A program made the position numbers and the translations under genes. Of a DNA stretch of 12,078 bases, positions 1 to 12,078 are shown one piece after another (position 1 is the first letter of the stretch; each line of letters opens with the position of its first letter). The stretch comes from a virus: UHGV virus genome UHGV-0261881, one strand, 5' to 3'. The notes beneath the pieces are model-generated. The model was not told the origin of the DNA. It ran no database searches and worked only from the letters and a program-made list of their open reading frames with translations.

Positions 1-246
1 GCGGGTAGGTGTACCAAAAATAATGGCGTCGTAATCGGCCAGTTCTTGCGGGGTTGCAACCGGTGCAGTTTGCGTTTTACCGCCTGCTTTTTCAAATAAT
101 TGCGGCGGCATGGTTTCCGGTACACGCTTAACGACAACTTCTGCGCCATCCACTTTGCTTGCACCCTCAGCGACTGCGCGTGCCATCGTTTCAATATGTC
201 CGTACATGGAATAATAAAGCACTAGTATTCTTGCCTTAACACTCAT
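1..246 (-). CDS. wrbA: NAD(P)H:quinone oxidoreductase WrbA, N-terminal 82 codons (3' end runs off the window); first 8 codons supplied by the inserted element
   Basis: Minus-strand translation from ATG at 246-244 gives [82 protein letters not shown]. From VLYYSMYGH onward this matches the WrbA N-terminus as I recall it ([31 protein letters not shown]...). SD aggaga sits 8 nt upstream on the minus strand (plus 254-259). Confidence 0.92.
216..225. other. attL junction (host wrbA side | element side), crossover within or next to AAAGCAC
   Basis: Sequence ggaataatAAAGCAC|tagtattc: left part matches wrbA, right part does not. The same AAAGCAC is found at the right junction. Confidence 0.7.
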
Positions 247-297
247 ATCATTGTTCTCCTGTTCAATGAACCACTTAGATAAGCATAGTCCGAAGAT

Positions 298-1941
298 ATG
301 AAGCTGCTAGTGACATACATCAGGTGGAGTACTAAAGAGCAAGACTCAGGAGACTCCTTAAGACGGCAAACAAACCTCATTGATGCTTTCTACTCTAAGC
401 ACAAAAATGATTATTACCTTCTTCCTGCTCACAGATACGTTGATAAGGGTAAATCTGGTTTTCACCAGCAACATAAGAATCAAGGTTCTGACTTCAGACG
501 TATGTTTGAAAATGTTATGTCTGGGGCTATTCCAGAAGGTTCCTTGATTGTTGTAGAGAACTTTGACCGCTTCAGTAGGGCTGATATCGACACAGCTATA
601 GATGATGTCAGGCAGATACTGAGGAAAGGAGTCTCTATACTGACTCTGGGAGATGGTGAACTCTACGACAAATCAGCATTAACAGACCCTGTGAAGTTGA
701 TTAAGCACATCATCATAGCTGAGCGAGCACATCAGGAATCTCTTGTTAAACAAAAGCGTATAGCTCAGGTCTGGAACCATAAAACACAGCTTGCAAGAGA
801 ACTTAAGAAGCCTATGGGTAAGCAAGCCCCCGGATGGTTAGAGCTATCAGATGATGGTTCACACTACATCGTTGATGAAGATAAAGCGTCACTGGTGAAT
901 ATCATCTATGACAAGCGTCTTTCTGGTATGTCGATGTTTGCTATCTGCAAATGGCTAAACGAACAAGGTTACCCGACCATTAATCAGCGTAAGGTCAGAA
1001 TATCCAAGACTAAGAAACCTGATGGTAACTGGTCAGCATTAAGCGTTAAACACATCCTGACTTCACGAAGTGTATTAGGTTACCTTCCCGCTAAGATTTC
1101 TACAGAAGACCGTAAAACAGTGTTACGTGAAGAAATTGAAGGGTTCTATCCTCAGATTGTCACAGACTCTAAGTTTTACGCTGTACAGCAACTGTTAGAG
1201 GAAACAGGGAAGGGGAAAACATCCAGCGGTGAACACTGGCTATATGTGAACATACTGAAGGGGCTTATCCGTTGTAAGTGTGGGCTTGTAATGACTCCTA
1301 CAGGGATACGTAAACCCGTTTATCAAGGTACTTACCGTTGCAATGGTAATAAGGAGTCCCGTTGTAGCTACGGTACAGTGTCCAGAAAGTTACTTGATAC
1401 ACAGCTTTGTAGTCGTCTGTTTAGCAAACTGTCACAGCTACACGATGAAGCTACCGATACAGCTAAATTAGATGAACTGCAACGCAGACTAAACACCGTT
1501 GATAGTGAACTGGAAAAACTCACTGAGACGCTGATACAGCTTCCTAACATCACTCAGATTCAAGAAGCACTACGGGTTAAACAGGAAGAAAAAGATGAAC
1601 TGATAGTTCAGTTATCACGAGAAAAGGCGAGGGTAAAATCTGTATCAAGCTTGGATTTAAGCGGTCTTGATATGGAGTCTGTAGAGGGGAGAACTGAAGC
1701 CCAGATTATTATTAAGCGTTTGGTGAAAGAGATTGTTGTTTCTGGTAATGAAAAGCTGGTGGATATATATCTTCACAATGGAAATATGATTCGTGGTTTT
1801 CCTCTTGATGGTAAAGATGACCACACCTTAACGCTTGAAGAAGCAACCGATGAGATGCAGTCATTAGATGATATGCTTATTTTTGGTGAACCAGTAACAA
1901 GGATTTATCCTGCTGGTGATATGGAAGAGGTGGACGCTTAG
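298..1941 (+). CDS. Large serine recombinase (integrase), 547 aa
   Basis: N-terminal catalytic motifs YIRWSTKEQ (catalytic Ser), [15 protein letters not shown] and ERAHQESL. Cys-rich stretch IRCKCG...[14 protein letters not shown] consistent with a recombinase zinc ribbon. Coiled-coil-like C-terminal region ([21 protein letters not shown]). ATG start at 298. Position next to the att junction. Confidence 0.88.
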
Positions 1942-1944
1942 GAA

Positions 1945-1960
1945 TTGGTATTGTTACCAA
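1945..1960. terminator. Hairpin between convergent genes (TTGGTA-ttgt-TACCAA), possible bidirectional terminator without a clear U-tract
   Basis: Perfect 6-bp inverted repeat with a 4-nt loop, exactly filling the gap between the integrase stop (1939-1941) and the minus-strand gene stop (1961-1963). Confidence 0.3.
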
Positions 1961-2734
1961 TCAATAAGTGCCCTTCTTATTCGGATTCACACTAAATTTC
2001 CGTAAAGCATTACCCGACTTAAGCACTTTTGAAGCCTGCTCATTAGCTGAGGCTGTGAAGGTGCTTACACCATCTTTCACCGTGACATTTTTAGAGCAAT
2101 TGCTACGGACCCTTAGCGCTTCATCAGATAGCTCAGATGCTGAGTAGCTATACAGTTCCTGACACATCAACATAGGTGCGTTATTGCGTTCAGTAGTCAC
2201 GTTACCCGCATTCTTCTTAGAAGTTGCGCCACCATCATTTGTGGTAGCGGCCTTTCCAGTTGCAGCAGAGATATCAGTCTGACCAACAACAGCTTTAAAG
2301 TTAATTTCCTGAAAAGTTAGCTGGATTCTTAGACCATTTGAAATACCAACATCTTTAGATGCTTTAAAGCTTGTAATAATGGAATCATCAATTTTAATTC
2401 CGTCCTTACAGATAACAGAAATAATTTGCTTCTGGTCACGCCAGCTTTCAAGAGTGTCAATGAAGTTTTCTACTAATTGACCCTGACGAGTTAATAATAA
2501 GCTTCCTTCATAGCCAACTACAACGACACCACTAATAGTGATTGTTCTGGGTGCTCTTTGCACATTATCTGTGACGGTTTGCCCTGATTGCATGTTCTGT
2601 GTAGTCACCTGCATAGGGCTATCAAATTCCATGTTTTCAGTTGCTGATAAGGTTAAGAAGGCATCTACATTGTCTCTTAAGTGGAAATAGATGCCATCTT
2701 TGCCACTGTAACGAATCTGATTAGAGTAAATCAT
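1961..2734 (-). CDS. Hypothetical protein, 257 aa; weak resemblance to a phage distal-tail/structural protein given its position after the tape-measure-like gene
   Basis: Long ORF. The track's TTG start at 2755 is replaced here by the ATG at 2734-2732, which has a strong SD (aaggag, 7 nt upstream on the minus strand). Beta-rich-looking sequence ([15 protein letters not shown]). No catalytic motif recognised. Confidence 0.6.
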
Positions 2735-2813
2735 TAAATTCTCCTTTGATTTCAAAGGCTTAGTGTATTTTAATCATTTTTAACCAAGCCTTTGATATAT
2801 AAGTATTTTCTCT

Positions 2814-2895
2814 GTTAAGCGTGAGCTACGTAAATTCTATTTTTCAGTGCAGGTATTAACTTTGCTTTATTCACGTAGCATTCGACTATTCATAG
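2814..2895 (-). promoter_or_regulatory. Promoter-like cassette, copy A, upstream of the 257-aa gene
   Basis: About 37 bp nearly identical to copy B (taagcgtgagctacgtaaattctatttttcagtg). On the minus strand it reads ...ctgaaaaaTAGAATttacgtagc..., a -10-like TAGAAT with no good -35. Dyad arms GCTACGTAAAT (2825-2835) and ATTCACGTAGC (2869-2879) flank and overlap the -10. Confidence 0.45.
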
Positions 2896-2968
2896 TTGAA
2901 TCGTCATACTAGATAAAGATTAATAGATTGCCATGTGTGGCAATAAATATTAGTAGTTCTAACATTGT

Positions 2969-5044
2969 TTATTCCTCTGGGTAAGCTGAGCTAATCAAGG
3001 TATCTTCCTGCATACGATTAATATGCGATGTGGTTCTTTCATCAATAACCTTTCCATCAAGTACCGTCTGAGTTGTGATATTGATTGTCTGAGGCTGAAT
3101 GTTTACTGACGGCTTGATAACCTTTAAATCTTGTGTGAATGTTTCCACTCGACCTTTCAGATTATTTAATGCTTCAGGTGAAAACTGTGGAACATCTTTT
3201 GATTTGCCCTGAACCATAGCCCATAAAACAGCGGCTAAAGAGTTCATGTCACCAGACAATGCTTGGTCTGTAGGTTCCACCTTTGACCTTACAACTTTGT
3301 CAATTGGATTATCTGACTTACTCATCTGACGTTCATAGAACGGTTTAACAATGGAGTTAATCACATCAGTTGCCATACCGACAATCATTACTTTGGTAAT
3401 TGCATCAGCTACAGATAATTTTCCTTTACCACCTTCAACACTACCGGAACGTGAATTAATTCTTCCTGCTGCTGTATTTGCTACATTTCCAAGCGTGGAA
3501 ATAGCCCTAATTAAGCTCCAGATGCCACCTACAGCACCAATACCAGACCTTACAGCAACAATACCAGCAAGTCCCTTTAATGCACTTAACAGGCCATTTG
3601 CGATACCATCAGCTACAGCTTTTTGAGTGTCATTTAATTCTCTGTAAGCAAGGGTCACTCTGTCAAAGAATCCCTGCACTCGGTAGCTAATCGTGGTTAA
3701 ATCATCAATACCGTTTGACATACTTTTCATCAAGTCGCCAAAATGTTCACCAAGATTTTTAGATTGCCCACCTAGCGAATTAAGTAAATTAGTCAGTGAC
3801 CTTGTAAAGTCTGTTAAACCTTCCTGTGAACCGTCGAACATTAAGGCCAGATTATTATTCCATGAATTAGAAAGGCGGCCTAACTGCGTCTGAGTAGAGT
3901 TAATAATCTTTTCCCATCCACCAGCTTTATCAATCATCCTTCCCATTTCAGCGGATACTTTAGGAAGAACATCTTTAGAAAGAACTTTACCGTCTTTCAT
4001 AGCCTTGTCTAATTCTTCTGTAGTCATCCCAAGGCTTCTGGCAAATAACTGGAAAGCACCTGCCATTCTGTCACCTAATTGACCACGTAGCTCTTCAGCC
4101 TGAATCTTCCCTTTAGAAGCCATCTGCTCGAAAGCTTTCAGAATCCCGTTAATTTCATCAGTACTTAAACCCATTAATCTGGATGTGCCAATCACATTAC
4201 TAAATAAGGATTCTTTCTGGCCTGCATCCATATCACCAGCACCAGCGGAAAACTTAGCAAAACTGCTTAATGTTTCAATCTGGTCAACACCAGTATTATT
4301 AGCAAGATTCTTAACAAATTCTGTAGCTCGTTTAGCACCTTCATCACCTAAAACGAATTGTGCCGCTCGTTGTGATGCTTCTTTTTTCAGACCAACCTCC
4401 ATAATCTTCCTGTAAGCTTCTAAGGCTGTCTGAAAACTATAAATGGCTGTACCTGCTTTGATTGCACTTGTAGCTAATACATCCAGACCATTCGAAGCAT
4501 TTTCACTGTGATTATTTTTGCTGGTGGTCTTGTTAAACTTAGAAAGTGTTTCACGAAGAGACTGATTTAATTTTGCTAACTCACGATTAAAAGCTTCGTT
4601 TCCAAGTGTCTTGGATTTACTACTTAATGCGTAAAACTGACTCTTAATGTATTTCTCGACAATTGGGTTAAGACCTTTCAGCTTGCTCATATTCGCTGAA
4701 TAAGCTGCTGTGATTGCTCTGTTTCCGCTAATTCGTGGTTGCCTTGATTGTTTTGGAGGATTAACAGTGTCATTAAATCTGGTGGCAAACTGAAATGCTT
4801 TTGTGCTTCTTGCTCTCTGTTCAATCTTGTCAAAGGTCTTATTAAACTTCCTTTCAAGCTGCCCTAAAGAACTTGTCAGATTGCTGTCAAGTTGCTTGGT
4901 ATCGACCTTAAACGCTCTATTCAAATTGCGTTCAATTCTTTGTGCTGACTGCAAAGCTGCCTTTTCAACTCTTTGCAAGCCCTTAATAACGTTTTCACTG
5001 AAACTAAGTTCAACGATAAAACTATCAACTGTGAATTTGCTCAT
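2969..5044 (-). CDS. Tape-measure-like protein (phage tail length tape measure domain), 691 aa
   Basis: Central block GLSTDEINGILKAFEQMASKGKIQAEELRGQLGDRMAGAFQLFARSLGMTTEELDKAMKDGKV resembles the tape-measure core domain. Gly/Ala-rich hydrophobic segment (GLLSALKGLAGIVAVRSGIGAVGGIWSLIRAISTLG) and coiled-coil-like N-terminus are typical of tape measure proteins. ATG start with SD agaggtg. Confidence 0.65.
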   Translation of the reverse strand: MSKFTVDSFIVELSFSENVIKGLQRVEKAALQSAQRIERNLNRAFKVDTKQLDSNLTSSLGQLERKFNKTFDKIEQRARSTKAFQFATRFNDTVNPPKQSRQPRISGNRAITAAYSANMSKLKGLNPIVEKYIKSQFYALSSKSKTLGNEAFNRELAKLNQSLRETLSKFNKTTSKNNHSENASNGLDVLATSAIKAGTAIYSFQTALEAYRKIMEVGLKKEASQRAAQFVLGDEGAKRATEFVKNLANNTGVDQIETLSSFAKFSAGAGDMDAGQKESLFSNVIGTSRLMGLSTDEINGILKAFEQMASKGKIQAEELRGQLGDRMAGAFQLFARSLGMTTEELDKAMKDGKVLSKDVLPKVSAEMGRMIDKAGGWEKIINSTQTQLGRLSNSWNNNLALMFDGSQEGLTDFTRSLTNLLNSLGGQSKNLGEHFGDLMKSMSNGIDDLTTISYRVQGFFDRVTLAYRELNDTQKAVADGIANGLLSALKGLAGIVAVRSGIGAVGGIWSLIRAISTLGNVANTAAGRINSRSGSVEGGKGKLSVADAITKVMIVGMATDVINSIVKPFYERQMSKSDNPIDKVVRSKVEPTDQALSGDMNSLAAVLWAMVQGKSKDVPQFSPEALNNLKGRVETFTQDLKVIKPSVNIQPQTINITTQTVLDGKVIDERTTSHINRMQEDTLISSAYPEE

Positions 5045-5057
5045 TCATGTTTCACCT

Positions 5058-5140
5058 CTTTAAGCGTGAGCTACGTAAATTCTATTTTTCAGTGTGGATA
5101 TTAGCTTTACAGATTTCATGTAGCACACATAGGATTCGAT
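5058..5140 (-). promoter_or_regulatory. Promoter-like cassette, copy B, immediately upstream of the tape-measure-like gene
   Basis: Same core as copy A. -10-like TAGAAT on the minus strand (plus 5079-5084) sits about 35 nt upstream of the ATG at 5044. Lies between an intrinsic terminator (5160-5201) and the gene start. Confidence 0.5.
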
Positions 5141-5159
5141 AGAAGACTATCTCATATAC

Positions 5160-5201
5160 AAAAAAGGGAGAAACTACCGATATCACTCGATAATCTCTCC
5201 C
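5160..5201 (-). terminator. Rho-independent terminator after the 67-aa gene
   Basis: Minus strand reads GGGAGAgattatcgagtgatatcggtagttTCTCCC followed by TTTTTT: 6-bp GC-rich stem plus U-tract, about 25 nt downstream of the stop at 5227. Confidence 0.6.
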
Positions 5202-5226
5202 GTTGATTTTCACCCAACCAATCTTT

Positions 5227-5430
5227 TTACCTAACCAGATAATAATTACCATCTTCACCGACAATCTGACAATCACTTGGTAATTTATCAAGACACCATT
5301 TAGCGATTCTTCTGATTCTGTTATTTTGCTTAGAGGTGGATGATTTGATTCGTTTTGGTTTGTTGGGTTGTTCTTTCAGTCGTTCACTAATTGCCTTGAT
5401 GAGTTCATAGCGTTCTGTTAAATCAATCAT
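5227..5430 (-). CDS. Hypothetical small basic protein, 67 aa
   Basis: ATG start with a strong SD (aaggaggtg). N-terminus MIDLTERYEL is paralogous to the upstream 102-aa protein (MSDLTERDKR). Confidence 0.55.
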   Translation of the reverse strand: MIDLTERYELIKAISERLKEQPNKPKRIKSSTSKQNNRIRRIAKWCLDKLPSDCQIVGEDGNYYLVR

Positions 5431-5455
5431 TCACCACCTCCTTTTTAATTCGATT

Positions 5456-5764
5456 TTAATCTAAGTAGTGTATACACTCGACACCGCGTTCATTCTTTTG
5501 AATTTCATAACGTAGTGAAAGACCAGTTTGATAATACACAGTATCAAGCTTATTTATCTTATCCTTGAGTTCGATAAGAAGTCGCGTTAAATCATCCCGA
5601 CCATCACACTTTAGTTCGGCAAGAGGCTTTTCTTCCATACGACCAATAAGATATTCAGTGACCTCCTGAATATCACCAAGAGTCATTTTAATTTCATTGA
5701 ACCTATCTTCAAAAGGCTCCATCACCCATTTCATTCTTTTATCGCGTTCTGTTAAATCACTCAT
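5456..5764 (-). CDS. Hypothetical small acidic protein, 102 aa
   Basis: ATG start. Its start overlaps the stop region of the upstream 234-aa gene (5764 versus 5773), suggesting translational coupling. Shares the M-x-DLTER N-terminus with the 67-aa protein. Confidence 0.6.
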   Translation of the reverse strand: MSDLTERDKRMKWVMEPFEDRFNEIKMTLGDIQEVTEYLIGRMEEKPLAELKCDGRDDLTRLLIELKDKINKLDTVYYQTGLSLRYEIQKNERGVECIHYLD

Positions 5765-5772
5765 TATTCACC

Positions 5773-6477
5773 TCAAACAGCCTTGCTAAATTCTCGTGGA
5801 ACACTCAGAAAATCATTGAAGCTGATAATCTGTGCCAACTCTTGACGGTACTCCTTAGCCAGCGCTTGATGGTCACTAATCAGCTTAGCCAGTCTTGATT
5901 TCAGCAATTTAATCTCATTTTCTCTTGCTTTCATCAGTTTCTCTTTGGCAATTTCTTCAAGCTCAGCTTGTGATTTATCAGCAACAATTAGAGACAGTTG
6001 ATGTGGCGCTCTGATGGCCCTTTCCGTACGAATAACCCTTTGACCTTCTGGTAAATCTGCAATCACTTTACCAATCTCTACAGGGTCATACCCCCAACCG
6101 TCACGGTCTAGTCGAGAGAAATAAGCATAAGGATTGGTTTGAAGCTCCATCAAAATAGCCATTTCGTCGATTTCGTCTTCAAGCTTGGACTGAATTTTCT
6201 CGTAAACACTTCTCATTGCTTCTTGAGAGTCTTTAATAGCTTGGAAATATCGGCGTTGCAGCTTCAGTTTCAAATCAAGCTCACATTTCTCATTCATCGA
6301 AAAATCAATTTCAACTCTTGGAATCTCGAGTGGTTCTGGTGGAATATATGGACCTTTATTTACTTCGTGTGATTCCCGCCAAGCTCTATCAAAAGATTCA
6401 CGCAAAGTTAATTCGTGAATATCAAGTGCACTTGGTCTGTTCTCAACAATCATTTCATTTTCATCACGGATAGCCAT
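5773..6477 (-). CDS. Hypothetical protein, 234 aa, charged and coiled-coil-rich
   Basis: Long ORF with ATG start. Its SD (agaagagga) lies inside the 3' arm of an 11-bp hairpin. No motif recognised. Confidence 0.6.
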   Translation of the reverse strand: MAIRDENEMIVENRPSALDIHELTLRESFDRAWRESHEVNKGPYIPPEPLEIPRVEIDFSMNEKCELDLKLKLQRRYFQAIKDSQEAMRSVYEKIQSKLEDEIDEMAILMELQTNPYAYFSRLDRDGWGYDPVEIGKVIADLPEGQRVIRTERAIRAPHQLSLIVADKSQAELEEIAKEKLMKARENEIKLLKSRLAKLISDHQALAKEYRQELAQIISFNDFLSVPREFSKAV

Positions 6478-6487
6478 TAATATTTTT

Positions 6488-6556
6488 CCTCTTCTAAGAT
6501 AATTTACGTTTCAGTTTTTAAAAAGCACACCTGACAACCTACGAACTTAGAAGAGG
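6488..6556 (-). promoter_or_regulatory. 5'-UTR hairpin sequestering the SD of the 234-aa gene
   Basis: Perfect 11-bp inverted repeat CCTCTTCTAAG (6488-6498) / CTTAGAAGAGG (6546-6556) with a 47-nt loop. On the minus-strand mRNA the 3' arm contains the SD, 10 nt before the ATG. Confidence 0.5.
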
Positions 6557-6594
6557 CTTAAAAGGCGTTTGCCAAGTATGCTTTTTAAAAGCTG

Positions 6595-6631
6595 AAAAAA
6601 GCCCTAGATAACTAAAACGCTATAAAGGGCT
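6595..6631 (-). terminator. Rho-independent terminator ending the upstream minus-strand operon
   Basis: Minus strand reads AGCCCTttatagcgttttagttatctAGGGCT followed by TTTTT(T). Confidence 0.5.
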
Positions 6632-6949
6632 AAGGTGAAGAAATTAAAACATCTAAAGGATTCAATAACGAATGAACAAGAGTACTTTTCGAGATGACCT
6701 CTCAGGTTATATAAGAGGTCATGTAGCGAAAAGCATTGCACCTTTCCAAATCAGAATATCCATCCATCGGATTATTGAAAATATGATTTTAGGAAGAGTT
6801 GCTCTTCCCTATAATTAAAATTATGTCATACTTAAGGTTATTTGTCAACAGCCTTTTAACAGATTGGTAACATCAATTTCTATTTACTGTGTTGCCTACC
6901 CAGCAACCAACAAATAAGCCAAGCAACGTCCAAGCAATTATTAAGCCCA

Positions 6950-7279
6950 TTAGTGAACCCTCACAGAATCCGTAACCAAAATATTGTCGCTGTACAGGAT
7001 TGTCACAGCACCTTTCAAAAATTGCTCTGGGGAAATACTGTATTTGTTCGTTTGCTCGATAACCAATCTTTTCATGTTGCTGTCTTTAATTGGTAGCATC
7101 ATTCGAGGCTCGTTAAACTCCACCGACTGAATAAAGTCAGAGATGCTTTCCGCATTATCAGTCATTAACTCTAACAACTTATCAAAGTCAACGCTAACAC
7201 CTACATCAGCGAAAGCCTGAATCATCATGGCGGTGTCGGTATCAATAAAAATCTGTAGTGGGAAGTTTAATTCTCTCAT
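6950..7279 (-). CDS. Hypothetical protein, 109 aa
   Basis: ATG start with SD aaggag. Lies immediately downstream (minus strand) of structured repeat copy 1. Confidence 0.55.
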   Translation of the reverse strand: MRELNFPLQIFIDTDTAMMIQAFADVGVSVDFDKLLELMTDNAESISDFIQSVEFNEPRMMLPIKDSNMKRLVIEQTNKYSISPEQFLKGAVTILYSDNILVTDSVRVH

Positions 7280-7304
7280 TTCTTAAAATCTCCTTTTTAC
7301 CAGA

Positions 7305-7430
7305 CCTCCTCAATCGCTCTGTAACGAGCTAAACAGTCTTTTTCAGGGGTAGCCTGTACAGTGGTATTACCCACCCTAAAATAAGGTAGTTTTTTGCGTT
7401 AGAATGCGATTGAGAGCGTCTGAGAAGCTG
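7305..7430 (+). repeat. Structured inverted-terminus repeat (SIR), copy 1, between the HNH-like gene and the 109-aa gene
   Basis: Aligns base-for-base in the same order with copy 2 (same orientation) and with the reverse complement of copy 3. Shared blocks GCTCTGTAACGAG, CAGGGGTAG, TACCCACCCTAAAATAA, GTTAGAATGCG and AGAGCGTCTGAGAAGCT. Termini are mutually complementary (CTCAATCGC / GCGATTGAG). Confidence 0.75.
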
Positions 7431-7435
7431 TTTTT

Positions 7436-7723
7436 CTAATTTCTCTTAAAGTCTCGGACTTGCATAAGATTTTTTGGTCTGGTATCGGCTCTGTTACCAT
7501 TTCGATGGATAATTTGCTTGTTGGATTGATAGCCATGATAAAGGAACCAGACAACATATTTCACGTAGAAAGTATATCGGCCTATATTAAATGTTTTGTT
7601 GCCGTAGTCGTCGGTATTTATCGTGACTGACTCTCCATCAGACCAGCACAGGGAATCACTGGATTCATCATAGATAAGGTGTTCTGTAAAATATCGTCTA
7701 ACATCTTCATGCCAAGGTTTCAT
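7436..7723 (-). CDS. Small HNH-family endonuclease-like protein, 95 aa
   Basis: C-terminal YVKYVVWFLYHGYQSNKQIIHRNGNRADTRPKNLMQV resembles the HNH motif of phage-type HNH nucleases (consensus-like ...W..hnG...IDHINGN..DNR..NLR). ATG start overlaps the upstream gene by 4 nt. Confidence 0.55.
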   Translation of the reverse strand: MKPWHEDVRRYFTEHLIYDESSDSLCWSDGESVTINTDDYGNKTFNIGRYTFYVKYVVWFLYHGYQSNKQIIHRNGNRADTRPKNLMQVRDFKRN

Positions 7724-7935
7724 AAAACCTCCTCACCCCAATAACCTAATTCAATCTTGTGACGCTCAAACCATTCCGGTTTAACTGCTGTTTTCAGTAC
7801 TTCATTTGGGTCAATGGCTTTAATGAAAATATCTTTTGAGTTATGGATGTCACCGAATCCGTTTCCTTTAATCAGGAGGTCGGAGATGTAGCGAATCATT
7901 TTATCTGTGTGGTATTCAAAGGTAACGCATAGCAT
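7720..7935 (-). CDS. Hypothetical protein, 71 aa
   Basis: ATG start overlapping the upstream stop (TAATG). Part of a tightly coupled operon. Confidence 0.5.
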   Translation of the reverse strand: MLCVTFEYHTDKMIRYISDLLIKGNGFGDIHNSKDIFIKAIDPNEVLKTAVKPEWFERHKIELGYWGEEVL

Positions 7936-8213
7936 TAAACCTCCATCGCTAACTTGTGAATCTTAAGACTCAATAGACGGGCAATATCAATTTTAAAGCC
8001 GTTAAGTGCCTTCAAAGTATCTAAAGCGTCCTGACTAATTCGGATGTGCTTACGACCTTTAGAGACTGGATATTTAAGTAAATCCGACTCAGTGACCTCT
8101 TTAGCAATTGCAAGTTGCATAATAGTTTGATGAGGTAAGTTAGTTGCTTGTTTAATTCTGGTAAGCTCGTTAAAAGCTTCCTCTGAAATACGGGTTAATG
8201 TGTGTTTATTCAT
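7935..8213 (-). CDS. Putative ribbon-helix-helix (RHH)-like DNA-binding protein, 92 aa
   Basis: N-terminus KHTLTRISEEAFNELTRIKQATNLPHQTIMQLAIAKE fits a strand-helix-helix pattern like CopG/Arc-type RHH. A second similar pattern (HIRISQDALDTLKALNGFKIDIARLL) follows. Stop of the upstream gene directly abuts its ATG. Confidence 0.4.
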   Translation of the reverse strand: MNKHTLTRISEEAFNELTRIKQATNLPHQTIMQLAIAKEVTESDLLKYPVSKGRKHIRISQDALDTLKALNGFKIDIARLLSLKIHKLAMEV

Positions 8214-8768
8214 TTAAAATTCCTCTGTAACTAAATACGGGTCAAACTCGAAATCTGGTTCACTAATCGTAAGGCTGATATTGCCCACTTCCGCATGATG
8301 ATTAATTGTCTCAATAACTTTCATGCAAATAGTGGCTAAGTTAGCGCAATATTTATCGCTTGGTAATTCATAGCTAAGTCTGGTTGCTTGTCTTTGAAGA
8401 TGGCTCGTCACTGTGCTTGAGCTAATCTTATCAAGGCTTCGAAGCAAATAGAAAATCTTCCGGTGATAGTTATCCCTTCCAAAGCTGCGACAAGTGCCGA
8501 TAATTACATCTTCAATTCGTGATGGTAGTTGCTCGTAAGAATCAAAGCCCATCAAGAAAGTTTTTAAAGTATTTTCTTTTTCTTTGCGTGTTGGCATATA
8601 TCTGTCTCGTGGCGTAATGCTACGAATGACCGCTTCAATGTTCTTACGTTCGGATTTGCTAAAGGTTGGGACTTCGTAGCTGGTGGGGGTGTCTGTGTAG
8701 CTGTAACCGTTGCTTCTGTTTCTTGCTTTGCTCTCTTCAAGAAACTTTTGAAAATCTTTGTCGTTCAT
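8214..8768 (-). CDS. Hypothetical protein, 184 aa, first gene of the operon
   Basis: ATG start 43 nt downstream of a consensus-like promoter. No motif recognised. Confidence 0.6.
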   Translation of the reverse strand: MNDKDFQKFLEESKARNRSNGYSYTDTPTSYEVPTFSKSERKNIEAVIRSITPRDRYMPTRKEKENTLKTFLMGFDSYEQLPSRIEDVIIGTCRSFGRDNYHRKIFYLLRSLDKISSSTVTSHLQRQATRLSYELPSDKYCANLATICMKVIETINHHAEVGNISLTISEPDFEFDPYLVTEEF

Positions 8769-8817
8769 TCATAAGCTGGCCCTTATAATTGTTAATTTCC
8801 TGTTAACTATATATACA

Positions 8818-8846
8818 ATCTTAGCAGTTTCAAAGGCTAATGTCAA
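8818..8846 (-). promoter_or_regulatory. Sigma70-type promoter of the minus-strand four-gene operon
   Basis: Minus strand reads TTGACA (plus 8846-8841), a 17-nt spacer, then TAAGAT (plus 8823-8818). Confidence 0.6.
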
Positions 8847-8854
8847 GCATTTTT

Positions 8855-8884
8855 TTAACATTTGATTAACATTTATGGTATAAT
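8855..8884 (+). promoter_or_regulatory. Extended -10 promoter firing rightward into the ORF-poor region
   Basis: TTAACA (8855-8860), 18-nt spacer, TGgTATAAT (8876-8884). Divergent from the operon promoter. Confidence 0.55.
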
Positions 8885-8917
8885 GGTTTTATGAGAGAGG
8901 GAAAATATAAAGGCGTG

Positions 8918-8975
8918 GCTATGAGGTTTATTCGATAAACCGAATCAACTATGAGAATGGTCACATGGTTATTGC
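8918..8975 (+). repeat. Direct repeat Rep2, copy A (contains cgaatcaactatgag)
   Basis: Homologous to 10493-10592 in the same orientation (ctatgagRtt ... cgaatcaactatgag ... aatggttatt). Confidence 0.6.
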
Positions 8976-8986
8976 ATTGCACACAG

Positions 8987-9082
8987 GCCTCTTCAATCGC
9001 TCTGTAACGAGTTAAATGGCCTCTTCAGGTCAACTCATAAGGTCAGGTACTTTTTGTATCAGAATGCGATTGAGAGCGTCTT
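8987..9082 (+). repeat. Structured repeat (SIR), copy 2 (shorter), forming the leader of a small ORF
   Basis: Shares the 5' block cttcaatcGCTCTGTAACGAG and 3' block AGAATGCGATTGAGAGCGTCT with copy 1. The central part differs. Terminal 8-bp complementarity TCAATCGC / GCGATTGA. Confidence 0.7.
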
Positions 9083-9095
9083 ACAAGGAAAACTA

Positions 9096-9272
9096 ATGGT
9101 AAACCTCCCTCCTGAGCTGGGGTCACCTGATGTTTGGGCTGGTGGAGGTGTGGGTCTGATTGCAGGCCTGCTACTTCGCTACGTCCTCGTCAGAGTGCTT
9201 GTTGTCTTTAAACTGTTCGGTCGTACATGGACGCTTGACCTTAAGGATAATGACCACACAGACCCCCGTTAA
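9096..9272 (+). CDS. Putative small membrane protein, 58 aa
   Basis: ATG at 9096 with SD aagga 7 nt upstream. Translation MVNLPPELGSPDVWAGGGVGLIAGLLLRYVLVRVLVVFKLFGRTWTLDLKDNDHTDPR has one hydrophobic helix and a charged tail. Weak hairpin (CCCCT/AGGGG, 9286-9309) downstream. Confidence 0.35.
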   Translation: MVNLPPELGSPDVWAGGGVGLIAGLLLRYVLVRVLVVFKLFGRTWTLDLKDNDHTDPR

Positions 9273-9391
9273 ACCCCCTTCAAAACCCCTATACCATCTC
9301 GTACAGGGGTATCTTTAGCATTTTGTGCTATCTATTAAAAAATAGCTTGACAGAACCGGAAAGCTGTATTTATCAAGTATTCACCTCTCTG

Positions 9392-9564
9392 ACAGTGATT
9401 TCTAAAAATACTTATTTTTCAATGAGTTGTAATCACCCATATATAGAGAACTGACAAGTCTCTTCACAGAGAACTCTGTAACCTTAACAGTAATTTCTAA
9501 AAATACTTATTTTTCAATGAGTTGTAATCACCCAATATATAAGGCTGTCCAGTACCTTCACAGA
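9392..9564 (+). repeat. Tandem direct repeat, two units of ~80 bp with a 95-bp period
   Basis: Units 9392-9470 and 9487-9564 share a ~55-bp near-identical core (acagtRatttctaaaaatacttatttttcaatgagttgtaatcacccatatata) and a downstream cttcacaga. A GCTCTGTAAC-like motif lies between the units (9474-9482). Confidence 0.7.
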
Positions 9565-10375
9565 TGACTTCAAGCCTTCTTAGCTATCCACTAAGCGGGA
9601 GAAGAGCGATAACCCCAGAGAGGGAAGCTCCCTTCTAATTGGTATTGTTATGAGGATGCTTCATCCGAATCATCTACCAATCCCTAAACCGACTCTCTTA
9701 ACCAGCCCTTTACGTTATTCGTTCACAGTGTTGATAAGTGGTTTTGCCCTCTGTTTCTGTTATCATCGGGCTTACCTTATCAGGGCTTTGAAATGCCCTG
9801 TAACTCCCCTCTTAACGGGAGAGAAAGAACATAGTGACCCCAAGCGAAGCGCCCCTCTAAAAAGATTTTTTAGCTACTTTGTTTAAAAGCACATCAAACG
9901 ATACATTTTATTGATTTAGGTCAAAGACAAAAGCATTGACAAAATGGTAAGATTGTTCACATGACCTTACTTAACAGATTCTTAAGAGCTTTGAAACGGC
10001 CTATTTAACAAGGTCACTACCTACGGTTCTTCGTTTTCCTTCTTTCTAGGTAGTCATCTGTTAAGAGTTTTTCAGTCTTACTCTTAAGAATCACTGTTAA
10101 GATGATACTCTCCCCTTCGGGTTATATCGTATCTCTTCTCCCGTTAAACACCCCTTCCTAACTATCTACATAATCACTTCTAAGAATCTTACAAGGTAAT
10201 ATCCAGACCTCTTATAGTTGACCTGATACAGAAGTTTTACAGGCATACTCTCTAGGTTACTAATCGGGTGCTATCAAGGGCCACTAAACGAGAGAGGGGA
10301 TATGTGACCATAGGGGAACCCCTCCTGTTAAAAAGGCCACTTAGAAGTCTGAGACTTTAGTAAAATCTGTGAATA

Positions 10376-10492
10376 TAGCTTCTCAGGCGCTCTGTAACGC
10401 ATTCTAAGCGATTTTACCCCTTTATTTTAAGGTGGGTGGTACATCCCTATAGACTACCCCTAAAAATGGGGTTAAAACTCGCTACAGAGCTT
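10376..10492 (-). repeat. Structured repeat (SIR), copy 3, inverted relative to copies 1 and 2
   Basis: The reverse complement of 10371-10500 aligns along its length with copy 1 (blocks GCTCTGTAGCGAG, AGGGGTAG, TACCACCCACCTTAAAATAA, GCTTAGAATGCG, AGAGCGCCTGAGAAGCT). Termini are complementary (GCTCTGTAGCG / CGTTACAGAGC). Confidence 0.7.
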
Positions 10493-10592
10493 TCTATGAG
10501 ATTAGCTTCATGAAGTAATTCATTACTGAATCACCTAATCGAATCAACTATGAGGCTTGGTAAGATTGTGCAAAATCTGTACAATGGTTATT
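10493..10592 (+). repeat. Direct repeat Rep2, copy B
   Basis: See Rep2 copy A. Here it abuts SIR copy 3. Confidence 0.55.
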
Positions 10593-10850
10593 TGGCTTCT
10601 GAAAATTTTTACAAAAATCATAGTAGCCCTCTTTGAATCTCATCTTCCCCGAATCTTCAAAAATATCTGACAGATGTCTGTAGCTGCTAAGTACCCGTCA
10701 CACCAGCTATGTGACCCCCTTTGCAAAAAAGCCAAATATCTATTGACTTTCTATGTGAATTGCTATAAAGGCATCTATCTAGACCTTTAACTGTATAAAT
10801 ACACATGACAACAAACGCCCGTTAAGTGTCTATATAAAAAGGTAGCTGTA

Positions 10851-10895
10851 GCTATAGACAACAATTGTGATAATTGATTTAATGGCTATAGACAA
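10851..10895 (+). promoter_or_regulatory. Two direct GCTATAGACAA repeats upstream of the small recombinase gene (candidate operator or binding sites)
   Basis: Identical 11-mers at 10851-10861 and 10885-10895 (34-bp spacing). Related TATATAG-like motifs at 10828-10836 and 10914-10922. Confidence 0.4.
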
Positions 10896-10935
10896 GCAAG
10901 ACAGACCTTTGTTGACTATATAGAGAGATAAGAAC

Positions 10936-11505
10936 ATGCGTACATTCCTTTATGCTCGTGTATCAGTTGATGACCTCACCACACAAAACCAAGTAGAAGC
11001 TGTTAAACGTGCTGGTTATGAAGTCAAACCTTCACGAGTGATTGAGGAAGTTATTAGTGGTGCTACACCAGCTATGGACAGACCACAATTTGTAAAGCTG
11101 GTGGATAAGCTGGAAGAAGGTGATTGTCTTGTAGTGACCAAGATTGACCGCTTAGGAAGGGATAACATTGATGTACAGAAGACCGTCACAATGTTACTGG
11201 ATATGGGTGTGAAGCTAATTTGTTTAGACCTGCCTGTAAAAGACCTTTCAAGTGCTGAAGGTAAACTTATCCTTCAACTATTCAGTACCTTTGCAGAGTT
11301 TGAACTTAACCGCATCAGAGAGCGAACCAGAGAGGGCTTAGAACGAGCTAAAGCACAAGGTAAGGTGTTGGGTCGTCCTGTAGCTAAAAACACTACAGAG
11401 GCCGTTTTAGAGCATAAGGCAAAGGGATTGTCACAAAGTCAGGTTGCAAAGCTTCTGAATCTCTCTGTGAGAACGGTTAGCCGTCACTGGACAAAGACAC
11501 TGTAA
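10936..11505 (+). CDS. Small serine recombinase (resolvase/invertase family), 189 aa
   Basis: Motifs YARVS (catalytic Ser), VVTKIDRLGRD and ERTREGLERAKAQGKVLGRP, plus a C-terminal helix-turn-helix (GLSQSQVAKLLNLSVRTVSRH). ATG start. Confidence 0.88.
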   Translation: MRTFLYARVSVDDLTTQNQVEAVKRAGYEVKPSRVIEEVISGATPAMDRPQFVKLVDKLEEGDCLVVTKIDRLGRDNIDVQKTVTMLLDMGVKLICLDLPVKDLSSAEGKLILQLFSTFAEFELNRIRERTREGLERAKAQGKVLGRPVAKNTTEAVLEHKAKGLSQSQVAKLLNLSVRTVSRHWTKTL

Positions 11506-11526
11506 GAAACTTAGTAGCATCTTCAT

Positions 11527-11550
11527 AGCCTCCTTCATGGGGGCTTTTTT
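11527..11550 (+). terminator. Rho-independent terminator after the small recombinase gene
   Basis: AGCCTCC-ttcat-GGGGGCT stem (one G-U pair) followed by TTTTTT, about 22 nt after the stop. Confidence 0.6.
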
Positions 11551-11558
11551 GTATCCAC

Positions 11559-11626
11559 TCTCTAAGCGTGTCCTACGCAAAATCTCCTGAACACTTACCC
11601 ACCCTCAGAAATAACTTTCACGTAAG
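11559..11626. repeat. Diverged third copy of the promoter-like cassette (copy C), containing a TTACCCACCCT block shared with the SIR repeats
   Basis: ctctaagcgtgtcctacgcaaaatctc resembles the cassette A/B core. The loop contains ttacccaccctcagaaataa, similar to TACCCACCCTAAAATAA in SIR copy 1. 3' arm ctttcacgtaag. Confidence 0.45.
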
Positions 11627-11937
11627 AAACTGTTAAGCAGCTTGATAGTTATTCTGTGTGACCAAACATCTATATATCGTTATATAGTCCTGTATATAGC
11701 ACTTTTCTAGGAGTCGAGAGAGGGACGACTAACACGATACAGTTTACCCTGAAAAGAGACTTCACAGATTCTCTATATATTTCAATAAGTTAGGCTAAAA
11801 AGAGACTATACCGATACTGCATAGAATCTGTGTAAAACTGCTTAGATACTTGGGAAAATGCCTTTAAATTGAATAGGGATTCACCTGATATTGTCCTGTT
11901 ATTAACAGGTAGTTGAATGTACGTGTTTAGCTATGTA

Positions 11938-11947
11938 AAAGCACCAG
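11938..11947. other. attR junction (element side | host wrbA side)
   Basis: Sequence ctatgtaaAAAGCAC|cagaactttagccat: the right part is the reverse complement of the native wrbA start ATGGCTAAAGTTCTGGTGC. Confidence 0.7.
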
Positions 11948-12078
11948 AACTTTAGCCATTTCTAACCACTCCTCGTGTTATCTCTATTCCGTAGCGATTC
12001 GCTACCACTTATTTAAAGATAAGACGTCCTTTTCAGAGTGCAAATTTCACAACCACTTATTTGATTTATAACAACTTT
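11945..12078 (-). other. wrbA: Displaced native wrbA start codon (11959-11957), first codons, SD and native upstream region
   Basis: Minus strand reads gaggagtggttagaaATGGCTAAAGTTCTGGTGC..., giving MAKVLV, the native WrbA N-terminus. It is separated from the rest of wrbA (1-222) by the element. Confidence 0.8.

Follow-up and report, generated by a model that had tools for sequence, protein, structure and literature searches.

What kind of element sits in the 5' end of wrbA in the virus genome record UHGV-0261881, and what would a unit of this size, which is not a complete phage, do with phage genes? The window analysed here is the whole of this record, 12,078 nt, which runs from the body of wrbA through an insert of about 11.7 kb to the native start of the same gene. 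Our analysis leaves very little doubt that 223-11944 is a complete mobile island with these boundaries and with a serine integrase of its own. It carries two tail genes, which very probably derive from Felixounavirus, the genus of the virulent Felix O1-like phages, and have recently exchanged sequence with it. Guided by analogy with the PLEs of Vibrio, we lean, with modest assurance, towards the view that the island is a transducible satellite of these phages that makes chimeric tails.

Insertion of the island into wrbA

The ends of the island and the gene responsible for its insertion are the following.

1..222, minus strand: chromosomal flank, body of wrbA, residues 6-79 by translation; its final 7 bases (216-222) form the attL core
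298..1941, plus strand: large serine recombinase (integrase), 547 aa, with the catalytic motif YIRWSTKEQ at residues 7-15 and matches in Pfam and to PHROG 95
11674..11944: right end; 11674-11909 is present family-wide whatever the integrase, 11910-11944 only in wrbA-type members (attP arm); attR core at 11938-11944
11945..12078, minus strand: chromosomal flank, native wrbA start with the first 5 codons (ATG at 11959-11957) and the upstream region

A first-pass annotation, made from the letters alone, had placed both wrbA junctions inside the window, and this is borne out: joining 1-222 to 11945-12078 in silico yields a perfect empty site, identical to uninterrupted wrbA at 356 of 356 positions. 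The native start of the gene is found at the right junction as proposed, where the reverse complement of 11941-11959 reads ATGGCTAAAGTTCTGGTGC, and the 7-bp sequence AAAGCAC occurs at both junctions (216-222 and 11938-11944). The insert is thus 223-11944, or 216-11937 if the other copy of the core is counted, i.e. about 11.7 kb, with the large serine integrase at its left end and a small serine recombinase at its right end, as first described. Only the extent of the left match needs correction: wrbA does occupy 1-222 on the minus strand, but the residues are 6-79 (VLYYS...TPTR) and not the slightly larger number implied by codons ~6-82.

The insertion is in wrbA codons 6-8, with the crossover inside the core AAAGCAC, and is made by the 547-aa recombinase. 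This protein has both the catalytic and the recombinase domain of the large serine recombinases (Pfam: Resolvase 5.6e-11, Recombinase 5.6e-20; PHROG 95, integrase, 2.6e-78), and its Zn_ribbon_recom match (22.1 bits) falls just below the cutoff of 25.3; the 7-bp shared core and the precise restoration of attB when the flanks are joined are in agreement with this class. The dyad symmetry of the att sites is weak and uninformative. Both attL and attR are identical in relatives, and the wrbA attL junction is identical in 73 complete E. coli genomes. The empty joined site was found in one contiguous piece (at least 80%) in 5,128 of the 5,426 complete E. coli genomes, so that the wrbA site is unoccupied in most of them.

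Members of the island family are found in either wrbA or yecE, each type with its own large serine integrase (507 aa in the yecE type), while a third integrase type, 34% identical, is present in the relative L020. The backbone common to wrbA- and yecE-type elements is 1976-11909, which defines 223-1975 together with the 35-bp right arm (11910-11944) as an exchangeable integration module. The remark in the first-pass annotation that wrbA is a prophage site is confirmed by the literature, and yecE, the second site of the family, is also known as a site of Stx phages (PMC2323221).

In the strains O111:H- 11128 and O157:H7 PA20 the match to wrbA ends at position 200 of the joined site, as against 222-225 for the island family, which indicates that two different mobile elements enter the gene at points about 22 bp from each other, both within its first 40 nt. 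The lambdoid/Stx prophages in wrbA (e.g. those of O157:H7 and O111:H-) share with the island the 5' end of the gene as attachment site, but they are complete prophages of about 60 kb, and their junction at around position 200 lies ~22 bp from the island core. They use tyrosine integrases.

Two tail genes from Felixounavirus

The first-pass annotation reported no recognisable capsid, terminase or replication genes. That statement stands, but two tail genes were missed.

1961..2755, minus strand: tube-initiator (Dit-like) tail/baseplate protein, 264 aa; likely start ATG at 2734
2969..5044, minus strand: tape measure protein (TMP), 691 aa; Pfam TMP_3 and TIGR02675

The element has neither head nor packaging nor lysis genes, and its ~11-kb architecture is conserved in the family, so its earlier description as satellite-like or island-type and not a complete phage can be kept. 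The evidence supports regarding that interpretation as incomplete rather than wrong, since phage structural genes are present after all. That these encode a tape measure and a tube initiator of the Felix O1-like virulent phages points, moreover, to the likely helper phage and to a mechanism.

The tube initiator matches Pfam Dit_like (2.4e-20) and chain A of PDB 9NDY, "Tube initiator protein (gp018)" (E=1.4e-121), and the TMP matches chain F of the same entry, "Tape measure protein (gp017)" (E=1.6e-75). The TMP gene and the gene next to it have their syntenic counterparts in Escherichia phage garuso (Felixounavirus), namely garuso_118 and garuso_119, and they are the only phage-related genes on the island. 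A tblastn search with the TMP against 50,697 phage genomes returned full-length matches solely in Felixounavirus-type phages. Compared with the TMP of garuso (735 aa), the island protein is 44 residues shorter and 28% identical over the full length; the two share the N-terminal 46 aa (~78% identical), the central TMP_3 core and the C-terminal ~30 aa (...QEDxLxSSxYPEE), and the remainder is divergent.

The tube initiator is divided differently. Its residues ~16-185 are phage-like and the last ~75 are specific to the island family. At the nucleotide level, 2201-2710 of the window is 92-95% identical to about 200 Felixounavirus records and nt 61-420 of the gene are 95-100% identical to Shigella phage JK55, but beyond about nt 540 the identity to phage drops to ~50%, and it is with the other islands that the last ~75 residues are held in common. 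By these alignments the island tube initiator is a chimera. The N-domain of other island alleles is merely 52-83% identical to phage, against 95-100% for the allele of the window, which points to recent gene conversion from a virulent phage; island and phage DNA must then have met within one cell. The hosts of the islands (Escherichia, Shigella, Salmonella and Citrobacter) match those named in Felixounavirus records.

Relative to the tail core of Felixounavirus (gp017 and gp018 in 9NDY), the two island proteins are thus direct homologues in the same order, with a near-identical ring domain and with conserved TMP termini and core. They differ in that the C-terminal ~75 aa of the tube initiator and most of the TMP rod are element-specific, and the other ~130 phage genes are absent from the island. 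We infer that the parts of both proteins expected to contact other components of the phage tail have been retained, and that the parts through which they could recognise each other have diverged.

Excised circles

A search of public data for the circular junction predicted from the two ends in the first-pass annotation, GCTATGTAAAAGCAC joined to TAGTATTCTTGCC (11930-11944 joined to 223-235), gave an exact match in three metagenome contigs. One of the three, the relative L018, is an 11,233-bp SPAdes contig with a coverage of 14.7 whose ends overlap by 55 bp. It is colinear with the element over its entire length, and the junction is exactly at the core; the closed circle is ~89-94% identical to the element of the window. 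The relative L011 is a closed circle of 11,141 bp (126-bp overlap) with a different, ~506-aa serine integrase, and here too the integrase end is joined to the right end. Excision at the core via attL x attR is documented for close relatives, not for the window copy itself.

The relative L019, part of the contig OOBX01000469.1 (23,009 bp, about twice the element), shows an attP junction with element DNA on both sides in the 6 kb that were read. This contig may be a head-to-tail dimer or a tandem array, i.e. a concatemer or a tandem integration. An 11.5-kb contig, L024, was considered as a possible circle and rejected, as it is an integrated copy with short yecE flanks. No candidate for a recombination directionality factor was recognised by sequence, and one of the small orphan proteins may have this role.

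A non-coding region with similarities to phage terminal repeats

The right part of the island contains three features that matter here.

8806..8884: divergent promoter-like sites; leftward (8846-8818 and 8833-8806) toward the gene block, rightward (8855-8884; 11/12, extended -10) toward the ORF-poor region
9273..10935, no strand: partly conserved region poor in open reading frames (ORFs), with a 95-bp tandem duplication, a 50-bp phage block, a cluster of CTGT[TG]AAG and many short repeats
CTGT[TG]AAG sites: minus strand, 9462-9469, 9483-9490, 9556-9563 and 9970-9977; plus strand, 10058-10065 and 10094-10101

To the right of the divergent promoter-like sites about 2.1 kb are almost without ORFs. 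We consider the ORF-poor region a candidate for a cis-acting replication/packaging region and a hotspot for variable cargo. CTGT[TG]AAG is found 12 times in the window against 1.05 expected (none of 200 shuffles reached 12), and eight of these 12 copies are non-coding and lie between 9462 and 11767. Every relative has 11-14 copies of this motif (CTGTKAAG), in a conserved order of minus-strand sites followed by plus-strand sites. A unit of ~95 bp is duplicated in tandem at 9392-9569, where the first 48 nt are 98% identical between the copies, and is present in one or two copies in relatives; each unit has CTGTKAAG sites and a promoter-like TTxACA...TATTTT.

The 50-bp block at 9636-9685 (TAATTGGTATTGTTATGAGGATGCTTCATCCGAATCATCTACCAATCCCT) is identical to sequence in the phages NBEco004 and EC106 (three Felixounavirus records in total); the matching positions are L003 311-360 and L005 3002-3051. 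In NBEco004 it lies within an exact 628-bp duplication found at both ends of the record, which we take as a direct terminal repeat; PhageTerm analyses have revealed direct terminal repeats in such phages (PMC11737134). The duplication aligns to garuso 49412-50002, inside a gene-free gap of 1.65 kb in which CTGTTAAG is repeated seven times on one strand alongside many TTGTTAAG/TTGTTAG variants. The 7-mers enriched in this phage region occur 49 times in the 2,167-bp ORF-poor region of the island, as compared to 21.4 +/- 5.6 in dinucleotide shuffles (maximum 44 in 500 shuffles). These likenesses are suggestive, though not proof, of a DNA-binding factor shared by phage and island in replication, packaging or transcription.

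In EC106 the 50-bp block is apparently present as an inverted pair. The block folds only weakly (z=-2.1), and it may be a short segment that is mobile or has been exchanged. A decayed array of phage tRNAs was considered as an origin of the ORF-poor region and discarded, because a tRNA scan of the window detected none; no credible Rfam family was found in the window either.

The island family and selection on its genes

The backbone 2811-8937 matches 478 of the 5,426 complete E. coli genomes, so that ~9%, about one in eleven, carry the family; all copies are chromosomal and highly mosaic, and mostly 80-95% identical. The gene order is conserved across three different serine integrases. The family core comprises the integrase, the tube initiator, the TMP, proteins of 67, 234, 109, 92 and 184 aa, and a 58-aa peptide; for the leftward gene block the core was defined with the relatives L020 and L021. 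An HNH gene, the 71- and 102-aa genes, Dam methylase and AP2-HNH genes, small recombinases and insertion sequence (IS) elements are variable. Values of dN/dS between members are 0.11-0.40 for six genes, among them both tail genes (TMP 0.16-0.22; 234-aa gene 0.12-0.13), and all six genes tested are under purifying selection.

In the relative L028 (GCA_012290065.1, yecE site) the TMP is 100% identical at the protein level to that of the window beside a different early region, which reveals shuffling of modules between family members. That early region encodes a 314-aa protein with a weak HTH_36 match and other small genes, and contains an IS insertion. L028 is also a hint that the place taken by the 184-aa gene is a replication or regulation module. 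Homologs of the 184-aa protein, which come from E. coli, Shigella, Salmonella, Citrobacter, E. albertii and E. fergusonii, fall into more than 1,000 clusters at 90% identity, every one of them named "hypothetical"; scans of genome contigs and IMG/VR with this protein returned one and two loci, respectively, too few for a survey of host range.

A proposed satellite of virulent phages and the alternatives

The island is a discrete, conserved mobile unit without the full complement of genes for virion, packaging and lysis, which is what a satellite looks like, and the closest known precedent is that of the PLEs. These elements have a serine integrase and the virulent myophage ICP1 as helper, and their TMP and baseplate hub replace those of ICP1 in virions (PMC12987554 and a preprint). 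Every PLE has genes for a TMP, a chaperone and a hub protein, whose products are 19-41% identical to those of ICP1; the chimeric tails are 10 nm shorter, and deletion of tmp cuts transduction by 96-99.9% (PMC12987554).

It is because of this PLE/ICP1 precedent that we propose a satellite model with chimeric tails. Infection by a Felixounavirus would trigger excision and the expression of the leftward genes, and the motifs of the ORF-poor region together with the 50-bp block would let replication and packaging proteins of the phage act on island DNA. By analogy with PLE and ICP1, the island TMP and tube initiator would replace gp017 and gp018 at the tail core and seed tail-tube assembly on phage baseplates. 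They would pair with each other via their element-specific parts and keep phage-compatible interfaces, namely the TMP termini and the ring domain of the tube initiator, the latter being refreshed by gene conversion from the phage. Particles with island DNA would then have chimeric tails, the yield of phage would probably fall, and the serine integrase would be capable of inserting the circle into the empty wrbA of a new host.

Several observations weigh against this proposal. Induction, replication, packaging and transfer are all predictions. Searches with Pfam, PHROG and NCBIfam, and a comparison with phage chaperones, revealed on the island neither a replication initiator nor a small terminase, a capsid-size factor or a tail assembly chaperone. 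At 11 kb the island has about one-eighth the length of the 86-kb phage genome, and a phage that packages by terminal repeats would have to form concatemers of it or make small heads. The circles stem from metagenome assemblies with sample type not given and prove excision, not encapsidation, and IMG/VR yielded neither the exact circular junction nor any circular member of the family. The CTGTKAAG motif was picked post hoc; the second, 7-mer test was run for that reason, and this unbiased test gives an enrichment of ~2.3-fold only. The 50-bp block is restricted to three phage records and some islands, so it is no universal packaging signal. Finally, AlphaFold2 models of the 184-aa protein (pLDDT 39) and of the 234-aa protein (pLDDT 56, coiled coil) are too poor for use.

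The main alternative to the satellite reading is a defence-only island, moved by its integrase and not transduced by phage, in which the TMP and the chimeric tube initiator act as dominant-negative decoys. They would enter Felixounavirus tail assembly via their phage-like interfaces and yield dead or mis-measured tails, in the manner of Tai and Tab. Such interfaces on both tail proteins are just what a decoy needs, packaging, capsid and replication genes were not found on the island, and interference with tail assembly is an established strategy on mobile elements (PMC11364771, PMC10884400). The two readings overlap in that satellites, too, usually protect the population. We nevertheless judge a purely defensive island unlikely, at about one chance in four: it leaves unexplained the conserved ORF-poor region with its motifs resembling the phage terminal repeat, the free circles with their 14.7x assembly coverage, and the retention under purifying selection of a full-length TMP with both termini and a complete partner. 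The known tail blockers are small, unrelated proteins and not full structural homologs, and none of the 10 minus-strand genes matched a model of PADLOC-DB v2 (E<=0.01), a 2023 library that may lack Tai and Tab.

If the island does depend on a phage, the helper could be another, unsequenced one, for instance a temperate myophage with a Felix O1-like tail module, and the near-identity to Felixounavirus would then reflect occasional gene exchange. Most known enterobacterial satellites have temperate helpers. The 28% identity of the TMP and the 52-83% identity to the phage gene, rather than 95%, of most island tube-initiator alleles would fit such a helper, but the tail proteins of PLEs are likewise merely 19-41% identical to those of the proven helper ICP1. 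The order of TMP and tube initiator, the shared non-coding features and the restriction of full-length TMP matches to Felixounavirus-type phages among the 50,697 genomes all point to Felixounavirus, and we regard another helper as improbable. Least probable of all, and hardly credible, is a cryptic prophage remnant or a plain integrative island in which the two tail genes are a chance acquisition and no part of the life cycle is related to phage. The classic prophage site, the PGAP labels "phage baseplate protein" and "tape measure protein" among hypotheticals and the IS insertions in some copies might suggest it; yet the ~11-kb architecture is conserved in hundreds of genomes with three integrase types, purifying selection acts on six of six genes, and excised circles are observed. 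A remnant also fails to account for the other genes, which have no relatives in the sequenced phages (bar one weak match), or for the recent gene conversion, given that its source is virulent phages and that these form no lysogens. Two tail genes apart, we found no capsid, portal, terminase, sheath/tube or lysis genes, nor remnants of them, such as a complete or defective tailed prophage would have.

Comparison with known satellites and significance

The satellite proposed here resembles the PLEs in being a small chromosomal island with a large serine recombinase, without capsid or terminase genes and with a virulent, contractile-tailed phage as its presumed helper. Like them it has its own TMP and an inner-baseplate partner which are distant homologs of helper proteins (28% and 75% identity in the island, 19-41% in PLEs), and a TMP shorter than that of the helper (691 vs 735 aa; 582 vs 677 aa in PLE11). 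It differs in its host clade and helper genus, in its size (~11 kb vs ~18 kb) and in the identity of the partner, which is a gp018-like tube initiator in the island and the hub BhuB in PLEs. No tail assembly chaperone gene was recognised beside tmp in the island, and a RepA-type initiator, the TcaP scaffold and a NixI-type factor were not recognised there with Pfam, NCBIfam and PHROG. Satellite behaviour is proven for PLEs, whereas for the island it is a prediction. As far as the evidence goes, then, the island works like a PLE, but we do not file it as one, as no equivalent of the chaperone, RepA or TcaP was found in a comparison made by description.

The EPIPs, satellites of Mycolicibacterium described in a preprint (PMC12822802), are also small elements with a serine integrase and a TMP but without most tail genes, and their authors propose tail hijacking through the TMP (PMC12822802). 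They differ from the island by the addition of a small terminase, head-tail adaptors, a scaffold and a capsid protein, by a temperate helper prophage and by an unrelated host phylum. According to the same preprint, TMPs are otherwise absent from satellites except PLE11 (PMC12822802), but predicted tmp genes are indicated in Vibrio PLE-like elements and some cf-PICIs (PMC12987554, legend to Extended Data Fig. 10).

The PICIs, cf-PICIs and P4-like elements share with the island a location in the E. coli chromosome, a size of ~10-15 kb and a dependence on phage virions, which for the island is presumed. Their hallmarks are a tyrosine integrase, AlpA/Stl-type regulation, Pri-Rep or alpha primase, TerS/Rpp, capsid and Sid/Psu proteins, and their known helpers are temperate. 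We rejected an assignment of the island to any of these groups: none of the hallmark domains was found with Pfam, PHROG and NCBIfam, and the integrase is a serine recombinase.

In open-access papers and bioRxiv we found no description of the island family, whether among E. coli or among Felix O1 elements. A broader claim, which we put forward tentatively, at slightly less than even chances, is that no satellites of virulent Felix O1-like phages were known in Enterobacteria before this family; it would be PLE-like, with chimeric tails, would borrow the replication or packaging machinery of the phage by mimicry of the phage terminal repeat and, as a by-product, would curb Felixounavirus predation. 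Good understanding of how satellites exploit virulent phages is essentially confined to Vibrio PLE/ICP1, and the first reports of chimeric tails made by a satellite date from 2025-2026. An analogous but unrelated family in E. coli, Salmonella and Citrobacter would mean that the strategy is general, and would make it accessible in the host with the most tractable genetics. Felixounaviruses, which are common in wastewater, are widely used for biocontrol of Salmonella and E. coli and for therapy, and are also used in phage typing; interference with their tail assembly by an island present in about 1/11 of genomes, if true, could explain strain-level patterns of resistance. Occupancy of wrbA and yecE, both sites of Stx phages, may influence the acquisition of Stx phages, and a serine integrase with defined attP and attB in wrbA is a candidate tool for genome engineering.

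Other genes, transcription signals and RNA

The remaining genes and signals of the island are listed in order of position.

5166..5201, minus strand: strong terminator-like hairpin (15-bp stem and T run) that separates the block of small genes from the TMP gene
5227-5430, minus strand: 67-aa gene (ORF), element-specific
5456-5764, minus strand: 102-aa gene (ORF), element-specific, missing from some relatives
5773-6477, minus strand: 234-aa gene, coiled coil, element-specific; named "transposase" by PGAP in some genomes
6478..6848, minus strand: untranslated region with a promoter-like site at 6848-6820 (11/12, extended -10) and, immediately before the 234-aa gene, a hairpin of terminator type and a second hairpin that is long and stable
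6950-7279, minus strand: 109-aa gene, conserved family core
7436-7723, minus strand: HNH endonuclease, 95 aa
7720-7935, minus strand: 71-aa gene
7935-8213, minus strand: 92-aa gene, conserved family core
8214-8768, minus strand: 184-aa gene, conserved family core
9096..9272, plus strand: 58-aa protein (ORF) with one hydrophobic helix (MVNLPPELGSPDVWAGGGVGLIAGLLLRYVLV...), conserved
10936..11505, plus strand: small serine recombinase of the resolvase/invertase type, 189 aa; Pfam Resolvase (7.4e-35) and HTH; terminator at 11527-11545

The proteins of 67, 102 and 234 aa have no firm family match in Pfam, PHROG, PADLOC or NCBIfam, and homologs of this block were found only in islands of Escherichia, Shigella and Citrobacter. 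NCBIfam and PADLOC give no functional name to any of the orphan genes, and a PDB sequence search with the 184- and 92-aa proteins returned nothing. Nine small proteins, run as one concatenated tblastn query against the 50,697 phage genomes, matched nothing but one Aeromonas phage, weakly (E=3e-4). Neither of the two genes upstream of tmp resembles the phage tail chaperones garuso_116 and garuso_117 or has a Pfam match; one of the two is missing from several relatives.

The terminators before the TMP gene and before the 234-aa gene suggest staged or antiterminated expression; signals for antitermination or staging were not identified. The segment 6478-6640 of the untranslated region folds on the minus strand with -52.9 kcal/mol (z=-5.5, 0 of 200 shuffles), and 5775-6606, which covers most of the leader and the 234-aa gene, is ~95% conserved with the relative L001. 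A match to the Rfam family MIR9563, a plant miRNA, at 6499-6612 (35.5 bits against a gathering score of 90) was rejected as a chance match to the same hairpin.

The 58-aa peptide has homologs 74-76% identical in the same position in the distant relatives L020 and L021, and is called as a gene of 58-62 aa in relatives. Its gene is transcribed in the direction away from the main gene block. The peptide could act on the membrane, with a part in the timing of lysis, in exclusion or in toxicity.

The 189-aa small recombinase is accessory cargo, missing or replaced in many relatives. Its gene and terminator are bracketed by an imperfect inverted repeat of 17 nt (10914-10930 and 11673-11689, 82% complementary). 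An inversion switch at this place was considered and rejected: in relatives where the orientation is opposite, the recombinase gene is another one, without nucleotide similarity, and no inverted version was found among the relatives compared.

The hybrid wrbA gene and the ends of the window

Insertion does not truncate wrbA, because the element supplies a new 5' end to the gene.

223..260, minus strand: replacement 5' end of wrbA from the element; ATG at 246-244, 8 new codons (MSVKARIL...) in frame, AGGAG (reverse complement of 256-260) 9 nt upstream

The reading frame is full length and the hybrid WrbA has 201 aa. Database annotations of relatives agree with this: PGAP calls an intact wrbA coding sequence of 606 bp that starts 24 nt within the element, and a 201-aa FMN_red product is called in the relative L029. 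The native promoter and the first 5 codons of wrbA are left stranded at 11945-12078. No promoter was recognised for the hybrid gene, and any such would have to sit within the integrase gene region.

The window is the entire MEGAHIT contig k141_16880 of ERZ27264782. Its right end, 12078, lies 141 nt past the last element-specific base (11937), a distance equal to the k-mer size in the contig name, and the left end has no such spacing. The 141-nt spacing fits the merging of de Bruijn paths, e.g. with that of an empty attB, and hints at a mixture of occupied and empty sites.

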